Shown piece after piece: positions 45,901-47,911 of a stretch of DNA of 64,000 bases; within the stretch, counting starts at the first letter, position 1, and every line of letters begins with the position of its first letter. The stretch comes from Verrucomicrobiota bacterium (GTDB taxonomy: Bacteria; Chlamydiota; Chlamydiia; Chlamydiales; SM23-39). The translations under genes were made by a program, and so were the position numbers. The stretch covers positions 19,409 through 83,408 of the forward strand of contig JAGWKO010000001.1 of assembly GCA_028873295.1 (NCBI GenBank), written 5' to 3'. Below the pieces are notes generated by a model. The model did not search any database. It was not told where the DNA came from and saw only the letters and a program-made list of their open reading frames with translations.

Positions 45901-46895
45901 ACACTTGGGATTCTGAGTCGTCTGAACTGTTTATGCGGGACCTTAATGCAGCAGTCCACATACATGGAGAGGGCGCTATCACTATCGCAGAAGAGTTTTC
46001 CGGCAACACCAAGATGACACTTCATCCAAATGCAGATGGCTTCGGGTTTGATTATAAATGGCATATCGCATTTCTGCGCAAACTCTTCGACTATTTTACA
46101 ATTTCTCCCGATCAAAGATCAGGGGCCTATGCGTCAATTAAAACCATGGTAAATAGCGACAATTTCCACAAACAGATGCTCTTCATTAGCCATGATCAGG
46201 CAGACGATTTATTTAAAATTAACCAAAAACTGACAACCGATAAAGAGCAGAAAGCGCAAATGAGGGCCATTTTGAGTTTCATGATGTGCTTGCCGGGGAA
46301 GAAACTGAACTTTATGTCGCTAGGGAGCAACACTCCTATTGAGTGGAAAAACTATCCAGAAGACGAAAGATTCATTAATGAACATCAACAAGACGAAACA
46401 CTCCTTGCCATGATAGGAGCTCTCAATCAGCTCTACACTCAGGAAAGCGCCTTTTATGAATTTGACGACAATGGCACGAACCTTGAGGACAAGGTAGTGA
46501 CAGAGAAAGATGGTGCAGATCTTGAAGATAAGGCGACAGAAGAGAGGGGTAGTCCTTCATTCTACAACAGAGTCGCAGCCCTATGGATGGGGACTCCGCC
46601 GGTACAAGAAAAGAAAGGTAAACAGCGTATCGAAAAATATTGGGTGGAAGATCCAGGAAAGATCTATCACGGTTATTGGAGGAAAAGTAGTAAAGGAGAT
46701 CAGTTCCTCTGTCTTCATAATTTTACCGATAAAAAAACTTCCTACATCCCATCAGGGGAAGAAGAATTTACCGAGGTGTTTAATAGCGATCATGTGAACT
46801 ATGGCGGAACTGCCTCCTCAACGCAGACTCAAAAAAAAGGATTTGAGATCGCCCCCCTCTCCACTATTATTTTAAAGAAGAAGGAAAGCATATGA
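42903..46895 (+). CDS. glgA-glgB: Glycogen synthase (GT5 GlgA) fused to GH13 branching enzyme (GlgB) with ~126-aa N-terminal extension
   Basis: GlgA part: KQGGLAE (KxGGL) and FEPCGLVQ..ATGGLADS. GlgB part: a CBM48-like segment, then DFVPAHF, GLRIDCV (Asp codon 45879..45881), IAEEF and SHDQ. Confidence 0.85.
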   Translation: MLAGINNYIDRRINKLNESINDCSSNGTIVNPISIDTLKKSITALENAQLNQFSVIAFKIANYVVKIFYKEYALIDNLLNLNNVSKRLVEDYTTIIKTRSFDDAGIIYDTSIKRMESHLPSPSSEKKLRVAMVGVEYADLLKQGGLAEAITGLSESLCDLGNEVQLVFPKYSSLPSSISDALTDPIVHKTNDGEEYKVYSYTIGKVRCQFIEHSAFEVEKGNIYQLDAKATSLLFSTFTALSTELLYEQKEDFDVIHLHDWHVAGIELKMKADHEQEWKEGRVPAIVFTFHNHQRGSQGRTYEGFYNYDPVINGYKTSGIIKTNDNLFVRALEEADAVTTVSQTFAEETQLPEKGEAVSFAIRQAARVGKLAGVLNGANLSRWNPKTDKNLVNWKEISTGTPLDLSFDENDFDLIRKKDLIRSELHAWITKYKPGIKIDFSKPIITYIGRYDTYQKGLHRLSPAIKAILRNEGQFICMGTGEDPEAKKILDQIEKEHKNGVFVIRDYRMENGKLYYQDGDQDRPGISSLVRAASDFIFIPSNFEPCGLVQFEGWQYGALAIGAATGGLADSINSENGFLFKGSDDLAAVIAKALTARKKQTLEERSAQIRHVMTTVKGSSWLESAKKYQTVYNYAISHKSKRGEKRELSLVETCRHRKIVSLATQKTAEEEYLEAYYTSSESDSLYLHRLYQKVDRCRRYCLPSPYGTRVDYKKHERLGSFPDGRFAVSAPEATKVELILTDDDGKERTIPMKKNSGVWHTSVPNISIGQKYQYRINGKTSKVDPYGKEHTYSLDSSGTRTHYSRVSNSQFQWSDTEWLSTRKRSTGSPKPLSVYEVHPHSMQKDIGYRELAEILHKHCEKTHYTHVELMGILEHPDVRSWGYQVTGYFSPTSRLGSMDDFKYLVNYLHERNIGVILDFVPAHFAKDNHGLAQFDGSNKYESDGVYYKASLQHWAFGFGAKHFNLQNKEVRDFLTSSAMYWIQEMHIDGLRIDCVRSLLNTWDSESSELFMRDLNAAVHIHGEGAITIAEEFSGNTKMTLHPNADGFGFDYKWHIAFLRKLFDYFTISPDQRSGAYASIKTMVNSDNFHKQMLFISHDQADDLFKINQKLTTDKEQKAQMRAILSFMMCLPGKKLNFMSLGSNTPIEWKNYPEDERFINEHQQDETLLAMIGALNQLYTQESAFYEFDDNGTNLEDKVVTEKDGADLEDKATEERGSPSFYNRVAALWMGTPPVQEKKGKQRIEKYWVEDPGKIYHGYWRKSSKGDQFLCLHNFTDKKTSYIPSGEEEFTEVFNSDHVNYGGTASSTQTQKKGFEIAPLSTIILKKKESI

Positions 46896-47911
46896 TCTCT
46901 TTTGCAACGCCAAGATTACATATTTCTGAAACTTGCTCTTATATAAGAGAAAGAGTTGCAACCTTAACACAAAGGGTTTCAGAAGCGGCGAGCTACATTT
47001 TTCGAATCCTTCAGGAAGTTCTCTATTTCCCACTGCGCTATAGGGGACCAAAACCTGGGACTGCACCTGAGGAGAGTTCCTACAAGAACCCCTCTAAGGA
47101 AGAGTTAGAACAATATCTCCCCTATGCATGTGCTGCCGCGTACATATGGAACATGAACCCCAAGATAAAGCTTCCCGGATTGGAAAACGTCCCTCTTACT
47201 GATGTGCTCTCTGAAGAGACTCTAAAGACATTGGGTGTTACAATTCAAGAAAAAACCGATGATGGTAACAAAGTGTGGTATTTTCTGGATGAAAAAACAG
47301 AACTTTCGGCAACTCTTCTAACAAGAAATAATGAATGGATTCTGGCATTTGGCGCCCTGGGCGCTGTAGATCGCAAAAAAGGTATGTTCTCATGGGCGAC
47401 TGTCGCCTTATCAATCCTGGGATTTAATCCAAAACTTTTTCAGCAGGCAGACAAACTAACTGCTGCAGTTTGTGAGAAGGCAAAGCAAGAAGGTAAATCA
47501 CTGACCTTAGTGGGACACTGTTATGGGGCAGCTCTTGCAGGGTATGCCGCACTGCGAAACGATCAACCAGCTGTTCGACTTAATCCCTTTCCCTTAGGTG
47601 CTGGCCAACAGCACTATATCGGAACTGAAAGACTGCAGAACGCAACCAAACAGATCATAAATATTCGCGCAGAGGGAGACTTTCTTGACTGGAAGATCTA
47701 CTCGCACTTGGATAACCTGGCCACTTTCCTTAGGATTCGCACACCGGGCAACTTCGGTTGCCATTATAGGATTCCTTCGGCTAAAGAGTATGTAGGATCC
47801 TCTGACAAGTGCCATGGTTTTATTCTTGGCAGTATCATGGAGAACCTTGGCCATAATTGCAGGACCCTCCCCTGCAACATTACTCAAACAGAATTTCCAT
47901 CTACTTTATAA
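46892..47911 (+). CDS. Lipase class 3 / alpha-beta hydrolase-like protein with Cys in the nucleophile elbow
   Basis: LTLVGHCYGAALAG is a GxSxG-type elbow with Cys210 (codon 47519..47521). Candidate Asp (EGDFL) and His (CHGF) lie downstream. ATGA overlap with glgA-glgB. Confidence 0.5.
   Translation: MISFATPRLHISETCSYIRERVATLTQRVSEAASYIFRILQEVLYFPLRYRGPKPGTAPEESSYKNPSKEELEQYLPYACAAAYIWNMNPKIKLPGLENVPLTDVLSEETLKTLGVTIQEKTDDGNKVWYFLDEKTELSATLLTRNNEWILAFGALGAVDRKKGMFSWATVALSILGFNPKLFQQADKLTAAVCEKAKQEGKSLTLVGHCYGAALAGYAALRNDQPAVRLNPFPLGAGQQHYIGTERLQNATKQIINIRAEGDFLDWKIYSHLDNLATFLRIRTPGNFGCHYRIPSAKEYVGSSDKCHGFILGSIMENLGHNCRTLPCNITQTEFPSTL

Follow-up and report, generated by a model that had tools for sequence, protein, structure and literature searches.

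A class-3-lipase-like hydrolase with a predicted Cys-Asp-His triad encoded alongside GlgA-GlgB fusions in Chlamydiota

The hydrolase gene and its junction with glgA-glgB

The window, a stretch of 64,000 nucleotides from contig JAGWKO010000001.1 (assembly GCA_028873295.1), carries a gene for a 339-aa α/β-hydrolase that begins inside the end of a gene for a fused glycogen synthase and branching enzyme (GlgA-GlgB). What is new here is an uncurated chlamydial family of Cys/Ser lipase-fold proteins, to which the hydrolase belongs, with the GlgA-GlgB fusion as its recurrent partner. The gene pair and the features of the hydrolase are the following:

42903..46895, + strand: upstream GlgA-GlgB fusion gene, 1330 aa (Pfam domains, PDB sequence matches, identity to the Waddlia chondrophila protein)
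46881..46886, + strand: AAGGAA, Shine-Dalgarno-like motif 5 nt 5′ of the hydrolase ATG, inside the end of glgA-glgB (sequence)
46892..46895, + strand: ATGA stop/start overlap, translational coupling (sequence)
46892..47911, + strand: hydrolase gene, 339 aa, class-3-lipase-like α/β-hydrolase with predicted Cys210-Asp263-His308 triad (open reading frame, family, AlphaFold model, fold match)
46931..47068, + strand: long N-terminal helix (residues 14-49) and degenerate family motif, here FPLRYRGPKPG (model, alignments)
47333..47362, + strand: EWILAFGALG, residues 148-157, strand β3 and FGA loop, probable oxyanion-hole region (model, alignment)
47513..47527, + strand: nucleophile elbow G208-H-C210-Y-G212, with the Cys codon TGT at 47519-47521 (strand and helix in the model, family column, Tle alignment)
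47678..47680, + strand: GAC codon of Asp263, predicted triad acid, after strand 255-260 (family column, alignment with Glu393 of Tle)
47813..47815, + strand: CAT codon of His308, predicted triad base, located between strand 290-294 and helix 310-318 (family column, model topology)

The ATG of the hydrolase (46892-46894) overlaps the TGA (46893-46895) of the 1330-aa open reading frame (ORF). The coordinates of both ORFs thereby confirm the ATGA overlap with a glycogen fusion gene that had been claimed by the first-pass annotation, which was made from the sequence alone. A promoter/terminator scan gave no promoters around the gene pair above the shuffled expectation and no convincing terminator between the two genes. 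Further paralogues of the hydrolase family were not found inside the 64-kb window.

The identity of the upstream gene as a GlgA-GlgB fusion is equally upheld by Pfam domains and PDB sequence matches. A 128-aa N-terminal extension precedes the GT5/GT1 glycogen synthase, CBM48 and the GH13 branching enzyme, with Pfam domains at residues 129-358 (GT5), 435-600 (GT1), 725-787 (CBM48), 880-1132 (GH13) and 1258-1326 (Alpha-amylase_C). The PDB matches are GlgB branching enzymes (8e-69) and starch/glycogen synthases. The GlgA motifs KxGGL and FEPCGL as well as four GH13 motifs (DFVPAH, GLRIDCV, IAEE, and SHD) are readable in the translation, which is 44.8% identical to W. chondrophila GlgA-GlgB.

All four peptides that had been quoted for the hydrolase were located in the 339-aa ORF. 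EWILAFGALG ends in the FGA loop, which by analogy with α/β-hydrolase topology is the probable oxyanion-hole region; F153 is present in 137 and G154 in 144 of 159 family members. LTLVGHCYGAALAGYAAL covers residues 204-221 and contains Cys210, IRAEGDFL (residues 258-265) includes Asp263, and KCHGFILG (residues 306-313) includes His308.

The N-terminal motif of the family has the consensus FPxRYxGSKxWSxPG, of which the window and Waddlia proteins carry a shortened version. About 30 residues of the conserved N-terminal segment (GSKTWSIPG...LLFGW..., alignment columns ~130-170) are missing from both the window protein and its Waddlia orthologue, and at this shortened segment the model falls to a predicted local distance difference test (pLDDT) value of <50 (residues 49-59). 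A role of the motif as a secretion signal was considered and rejected. The motif is internal in four of the six family members that form a single polypeptide with GlgA-GlgB (triple fusions), which argues for a part of the hydrolase module instead of an N-terminal export signal. By eye, the N-terminus of the window hydrolase does not resemble a signal peptide.

Fold, predicted triad and family of the hydrolase

The AlphaFold2 model of the window protein was built on 15 homologues and has a mean pLDDT of 78 with a core of >90. A second and better model was obtained for homologue P0012 (pLDDT 84.8). The nucleophile elbow is seen in both models, and in the window model Cys210 has strand 203-209 before it and helix 211-222 after it. 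The predicted nucleophile, acid, and histidine follow each other after strands β5, β7, and β8, an order that recurs in the P0012 model. As modeled, the protein thus shows both hallmarks of an α/β-hydrolase, which are the G-x-Nu-x-G elbow and the sequence of nucleophile, acid, and histidine on loops after successive strands. The strand-elbow-helix pattern with Cys210 at the elbow, as proposed from sequence, is reproduced by the two models, and the proposed Asp and His partners correspond to Asp263 and His308, which fall on conserved D and H columns of the family and stand in canonical order.

In a Foldseek search against the PDB, the best match of the window model is the lipase domain of Tle (9cys_A, E 3.9e-8), while all other matches have E values of at least 1.5e-3; prolyl oligopeptidases are among these weak matches. 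The P0012 model again retrieves 9cys_A first (E 4.0e-8), followed by feruloyl esterase A (FaeA; 1uza, 2ix9, and 1uwc at ranks 2-4), Rhizopus lipase 6a0w and the mono/diacylglycerol lipase MDGL 5xk2, with a Foldseek probability of 1.00. A dienelactone hydrolase (DLH) structure, 2o2g, stands at rank 10 (6.9e-4). The sequence profile of the family points to the same protein, as its best match among PDB sequences is Tle (7ubz/9cys, E 1.5e-4).

Tle is an effector of the type VI secretion system (T6SS) of Enterobacter cloacae with demonstrated phospholipase A1 and A2 (PLA1/PLA2) activity and a Ser341-Glu393-His448 triad, and it needs the ankyrin immunity/activator protein Tli (PMC11470151). In the profile alignment, Cys210 falls on Ser341 of the GHS341LG elbow and Asp263 on Glu393. 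Remote homology of the family to this phospholipase is detectable at the level of profile and predicted fold, where Tle is the top match in both and shares a G-H-Nu-L-G-G elbow with the "FN" strand that comes after it, and the acid column. The two proteins differ in their triads, which are Ser-Glu-His in Tle and predicted to be Cys-Asp-His in the window protein. Tle is moreover T6SS-delivered, depends on Tli, and has no link to a glycosyltransferase, whereas the window hydrolase lacks an ankyrin neighbor and no T6SS context was seen. At one other locus of the family, L011, a 252-aa ankyrin-repeat protein (9032-9793, - strand) is encoded convergently, its gene running into the 3′ end of the hydrolase gene. 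This neighbor is absent from the other loci and probably coincidental; the idea that the family has an ankyrin "immunity" protein as a conserved partner, like Tli for Tle, was rejected, since such a neighbor was seen at L011 only.

The first-pass annotation had noted in the protein the pattern of class 3 lipases and DUF2974-type hydrolases and had suggested a comparison with lipase_3 and DLH folds. The class-3-lipase fold holds in the Foldseek comparison, but no Pfam cut-off (Lipase_3, Mbeg1-like/DUF2974, DLH) is reached, which makes the protein a relative of these families and not a member. Searched as a single sequence against Pfam and NCBIfam and, with phmmer, against the PDB, it gave only sub-threshold matches around the elbow or noise. 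For Lipase_3 (PF01764, gathering cut-off 22 bits) the window protein has no match at E<=10, and relatives score 19-24 bits with only P0112 (24.3 bits) passing. The Mbeg1-like/DUF2974 family (PF11187, cut-off 21.1 bits) is approached by two relatives with 13.9-16.4 bits (E 0.0065-0.038). SA1320_fam of NCBIfam (cut-off 230 bits) scores the window protein at 13.1 bits and yields weak matches in 67 of 129 members, the best of which (E 4.6e-9) stays far below the cut-off. Weak local matches around the elbow in relatives also occur for UPF0227, and a precomputed weak match to PF26363 "Phospholipase-like" exists for member P0017. Polyhydroxyalkanoate (PHA) synthase (PhaC) domains were matched neither in the window protein nor in 129 members (NCBIfam) or 19 relatives (Pfam).

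With class 3 lipases, which include fungal lipases and Aspergillus niger FaeA, the family shares the fold class and, in many members, weak profile matches centered on the elbow. Class 3 lipases use a serine nucleophile in contrast to Cys210, and the N-terminal helix and FPxRYxGSKxWSxPG motif set the chlamydial family apart from class 3 lipases, Mbeg1-like proteins, and SA1320. The likeness to DLH, and also to PHA synthase, is the cysteine at the nucleophile elbow of an α/β-hydrolase. However, the window protein has no match to DLH (PF01738, gathering cut-off 21 bits), and among the fold matches Tle and the class 3 lipases come well ahead of DLH structures. The DLH cut-off is passed by P0027 (25.8 bits) and P0171 (25.6 bits), and matches in relatives span ~40-60 residues around the elbow. 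DLH membership was set aside, as fold and profile evidence favors the class 3 lipases. The hydrolase family is a distinct, uncurated family in the class-3-lipase-like part of the α/β-hydrolase superfamily.

To collect the family, 1.84 billion representatives, clustered at 50% identity, were searched exhaustively with phmmer; 297 clusters match at E<=0.001, of which 191 reach E<=1e-10 and 16 reach E<=1e-30. Since this amounts to 297 representative relatives and the elbow is modeled with confidence, a chance motif is excluded. A word-indexed homology search with the window protein gave a single relative, and the profile reached more. A contig scan keyed on the N-terminal motif yielded five loci, a metagenome scan used the trimmed core alignment, and tblastn against plasmids gave no family match.

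Column counts were taken from 163 aligned members. The nucleophile column holds Cys 116 times, Ser 44 times, and Asn twice, so that Cys or Ser is found in 160 of 162. The elbow glycines G208 (161/162) and G212 (153/162), Asp263 (156/162, with Glu in 5), His308 (161/161), and N231 (160/162) are kept, as is a strongly conserved RTPGNFG motif (G289 in 162/162, F288 in 156/162). Homologs lacking the catalytic residues, the finding that had been named as evidence against the proposed triad, are therefore not what the family presents. Cys and Ser swap many times across the neighbor-joining tree, which is the behavior of a true catalytic nucleophile. A Cys nucleophile is unusual in lipases generally and rare for lipase-fold enzymes. 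The claim that a Cys-Asp-His triad on a lipase scaffold is uncommon thus stands for lipases at large but not within the family, where Cys is the majority. Members linked to GlgA-GlgB were also considered as a single clade; this was rejected, because the tree is star-like and the fusions are scattered over it.

Other architectures of the family (P0139, 806 aa; P0147, 1742 aa; P0112, 818 aa; P0089/P0097) comprise one PLD fusion, two large proteins with N-terminal regions without an assigned domain, and two members with Asn at the nucleophile position. Judged from sequence, the two Asn-type members are probably pseudoenzymes.

The taxon labels obtained for family members are all Chlamydiota (Parachlamydia sp., Candidatus Protochlamydia sp., "Chlamydiae bacterium," and Waddlia chondrophila), except for the metagenome-assembled genome (MAG) of the window, which carries the NCBI label Verrucomicrobiota. 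From the identity of its GlgA-GlgB to that of Waddlia and from the neighboring F-box, SET, and leucine-rich repeat (LRR) genes, we infer that this MAG is a chlamydial relative. The eukaryote-like genes near the locus are an F-box gene (38965-40104, +), tandem SET genes (40819-41490, -, and 41432-42115, -), and an LRR/internalin-like gene (8843-10960, -). These domains suggest an intracellular lifestyle.

Linkage to GlgA-GlgB across loci and comparison with Legionella effectors

Conservation of the gene pair in relatives had been put forward as a check, and the coupled pair was indeed found in six lineages including the window and W. chondrophila. In each of them the hydrolase follows GlgA-GlgB:

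Window: 4-nt overlap
L011/L012 (closest homologue, P0012): 4-nt overlap
L020/L025: 1-nt overlap
L016 (with a second copy in tandem): 14-nt overlap
L029 (Ser-type member): 3-nt gap
L032, W. chondrophila ATCC VR-1470 (WGS accession LVEB01), hydrolase P0023: 8-nt overlap

The accession LVEB01 belongs to W. chondrophila ATCC VR-1470 (PMC5107887), where GlgA-GlgB occupies 3617-8008 (1463 aa) and the Cys-type hydrolase P0023 8001-8981 of LVEB01000023.1. An AAGGA or AGGAG motif stands just 5′ of the hydrolase ATG in all six junctions. Compared with the W. chondrophila proteins, the other GlgA-GlgB fusions are 45-64% and the other hydrolases 30-52% identical.

In six clusters the linkage is covalent. 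The GlgA-GlgB-hydrolase triple fusions P0027, P0091, P0102 (= MCX6990122.1, Chlamydiae bacterium), P0103, P0106, and P0124 are single polypeptides of 1667-2000 aa that combine GT5, GT1, GH13, and the hydrolase; CBM48 was detected in four of the six. The reverse order, with the hydrolase followed by a GlgA-like GT5/GT1 part, is found in P0036, P0093, and a 1064-aa ORF of L004. Fusion in two orders and conserved translational coupling argue that the two proteins act together, and on this sequence evidence it is very likely that the hydrolase and GlgA-GlgB work as partners.

The surroundings of the pair vary. L004, from a Candidatus Protochlamydia sp. MAG, contains a solo member with a C-terminal extension (3902-5302), a hydrolase-GlgA-like fusion (5962-9156), and a GlgA-like protein of 806 aa (9180-11600). 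L011 has a similarly long GlgA-like paralogue (782 aa), which is divergent from glgA-glgB. The tandem family members of L016 (5284-6405 and 6429-7490) follow GlgA-GlgB and are themselves followed by an ORF with a GHSLG motif and no Pfam hit (7561-8886), which by its motif is probably another α/β-hydrolase.

At the Parachlamydia-type loci L008 and L006, four genes form a cluster, which encode GlgA-GlgB, a protein of 918-932 aa, the hydrolase, and a MurG-like GT-B protein of 441 aa. The 918-932-aa protein has no Pfam hits, lies directly 5′ of the hydrolase (L008 4241-6997, L006 3127-5925, L009 4199-6997), and is 59-70% identical between loci. In L008 it is flanked directly by GlgA-GlgB on one side and the hydrolase on the other, in L006 a HipA-like gene is interposed as well, and in L009 there is no GlgA-GlgB within 7 kb. 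The MurG-like protein is encoded directly 3′ of the hydrolase (L008 8115-9440; L006 7044-8372) and is recognized by SSGGGGH and RSGGMTSAE, which are MurG-type motifs of the G-loop and of donor binding, and by a weak match to GT28_C (E 0.018). Sugar-nucleotide enzymes again adjoin family members at L002 and L015, both without GlgA-GlgB, where a ManC-like nucleoside diphosphate-sugar pyrophosphorylase is convergent with the hydrolase (L002 7023-8126, -; L015 1112-3228, -). In L015 a GT4 glycosyltransferase also comes next.

Hydrolases joined to a GT-B glycosyltransferase are also known from the Dot/Icm effectors SidB, SdbB, and SdbA of Legionella pneumophila, of which only the published features were compared (bioRxiv 10.1101/2024.03.14.585084). 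SidB has a GxSxG elbow, and SdbB has GxCxG with a putative C187-D273-H351 triad, of which D273 and H351, together with G189, are needed for toxicity in yeast. SdbA combines a hydrolase domain with a MurG-like GT-B glycosyltransferase that carries the motifs GGTGHIS and GGLSVME (bioRxiv 10.1101/2024.03.14.585084). Like the chlamydial family, these are α/β-hydrolases with a Cys or Ser elbow from an intracellular bacterium, with linkage to a GT-B enzyme in SdbA, and the MurG-like neighbor in L008 and L006 mirrors the fused glycosyltransferase domain of SdbA in architecture. The triad spacing differs, with 86 and 78 residues in SdbB versus 53 and 45 in the window protein. Furthermore, the chlamydial partner is a glycogen synthase/branching enzyme and not a UDP-N-acetylglucosamine enzyme.

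Candidate functions of the pair

Our tentative preference is for a catalytically active enzyme of the lipase/phospholipase type, either an acyl-ester hydrolase or an acyltransferase, that uses a Cys-Asp-His triad and partners GlgA-GlgB at a lipid/membrane interface. The conserved triad argues for an active enzyme. Acyl-ester (lipid-type) activity is favored because the nearest characterized relative is a PLA1/PLA2 enzyme and one paralogue is fused to PLD. Cys210, Asp263, and His308 would form an acyl-(thio)ester intermediate, and translational coupling would keep the hydrolase in a fixed ratio with GlgA-GlgB. The hydrolase would physically associate with GlgA-GlgB as an accessory catalytic module of the GT-B glycosyltransferase and would most likely act at the lipid/membrane interface where the chlamydial glucan enzyme acts. 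Candidate compartments are the bacterial cytosol or, after type III secretion, the inclusion or host cytosol. In Chlamydia trachomatis, the N-termini of Glg enzymes including GlgA and GlgB serve as signals when type III secretion is assayed in a heterologous system, and the inclusion lumen is proposed as the place where these enzymes act (PMC4829429). By analogy, a secreted two-enzyme module of hydrolase and GlgA-GlgB is plausible. Catalysis, binding to GlgA-GlgB, the lipid acyl ester substrate, and secretion of the hydrolase are thus all inferred components of this proposal.

Several observations weigh against it. About half of the informative loci (L002, L007, L009, L010, L017, and L026-L028) have no GlgA-type neighbor, and because the neighbor is missing at these eight loci, the family is not exclusively a GlgA partner. 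Proximity to the window was one of the criteria by which loci were sampled. The window protein falls short of every curated family cut-off, and the lid region and His loop of its model are only moderately confident (pLDDT 59-76). Carbohydrate esterases, FaeA among them, likewise adopt the class-3-lipase fold, so that a lipid substrate is not established.

The last point leads to a glucan-directed enzyme, which would act on the product or primer of GlgA-GlgB and either acylate the α-glucan via a Cys-thioester or remove its ester groups. A common pathway is supported by the fusions to GlgA/GlgB, which occur in both orders, and A. niger FaeA, a polysaccharide esterase, takes ranks 2-4 for the better model. 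A Cys nucleophile, as in PHA synthases and dienelactone hydrolase, is also common in acyl-transferring α/β-hydrolases. The best relative is however a phospholipase and not a sugar esterase, glucan enzymes are missing from the vicinity of many members, and one member carries a PLD fusion. We also know of no acylated chlamydial glycogen, and a glucan-directed role is considered unlikely.

An independent secreted phospholipase or lipase effector that acts on host or vacuole lipids, with linkage to glgA-glgB reflecting co-regulation or shared secretion only, is doubtful to a similar degree. It would fit the homology to the T6SS phospholipase effector Tle, the paralogue expansion with tandem copies and many solo loci, the PLD fusion of one member, the effector-like F-box, SET, and LRR genes around the window locus, and the precedent of SidB and SdbB with their GxS/CxG elbows. 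Co-regulation, on the other hand, leaves the repeated covalent fusion in two domain orders unexplained, and the overlapping junctions have been kept though GlgA-GlgB is only ~45% identical to the W. chondrophila enzyme.

It is very improbable that the hydrolase is a processing peptidase that cleaves GlgA-GlgB or the triple fusion and thereby frees an active branching enzyme. To our knowledge, no cleavage site is known in the GlgA-GlgB fusion, the closest relatives of the hydrolase are lipases and esterases, and most family members are not beside a fusion protein. In favor of such processing, some α/β-hydrolases are peptidases, prolyl oligopeptidases occur among the weak fold matches, and recombinant W. 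chondrophila GlgA-GlgB has no branching activity (PMC7935935). A noncatalytic scaffold or pseudoenzyme that tethers GlgA-GlgB, for instance to a membrane, would agree with the two Asn-type members and with the loss-of-function mutations in SdbA that spared its hydrolase domain (bioRxiv 10.1101/2024.03.14.585084), but is just as hard to credit given that the nucleophile, Asp, His, elbow glycines, and RTPGNFG are near-invariant in the family and present in the window protein.

Of these explanations, the acyl-ester hydrolase that partners GlgA-GlgB remains preferred. A wider claim, in which GlgA-GlgB and the Cys-hydrolase are a conserved two-enzyme and sometimes one-polypeptide effector machine of environmental Chlamydiota that couples α-glucan synthesis to acyl/lipid chemistry, is speculative and more doubtful than either of the two leading alternatives. 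Were it true, the outcome could be an acylated or lipid-anchored glucan, or glucan synthesis at a host/vacuole membrane remodeled by the hydrolase. The GxC/SxG hydrolase with its GT-B partner would then be an ancient effector architecture common with Legionella SdbA, and the fused GlgA-GlgB of Waddlia would have a function instead of being a decaying relic. That a hydrolase goes together with a GT-B glycosyltransferase in both the Chlamydiota family and the SidB/SdbA/SdbB effectors suggests a shared design.

The GlgA-GlgB fusion was previously known from Waddliaceae and Criblamydiaceae and was called exceptional and part of a nonfunctional, decaying GlgC pathway by Colpaert et al. 2021 (PMC7935935). 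Recombinant W. chondrophila GlgA-GlgB showed glycogen synthase activity, and its lack of branching was blamed by the authors on the N-terminal GlgA extension (PMC7935935). Word searches of this paper turned up no reference to a lipase or to a hydrolase gene lying downstream. A literature search joining Chlamydiae, GlgA/glycogen synthase, and lipase gave none with "lipase" among the matches listed, and the glycogen enzymes and the hydrolase are not mentioned in the main text and tables of a Waddlia effector-proteomics paper. Differing from the published picture, the fusion together with the hydrolase is conserved over deep divergence and is sometimes extended to a triple fusion. The fusion now appears widespread, intact, and in nearly all cases followed by or fused to the hydrolase. 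Such a pattern speaks for a function under selection and casts doubt on the idea of a "relic" in Waddlia and Estrella (PMC7935935).

The unnamed family as defined here comprises no fewer than 297 clusters at 50% identity and has a clear active site with Cys as the dominant nucleophile. Its pairing with GlgA-GlgB is testable in W. chondrophila, which can be cultivated and from which GlgA-GlgB has been expressed before. On LVEB01000023.1 of this organism, GlgA-GlgB is preceded by a GT8-like gene (2693-3538) with a weak match to PF01501 (Glyco_transf_8).

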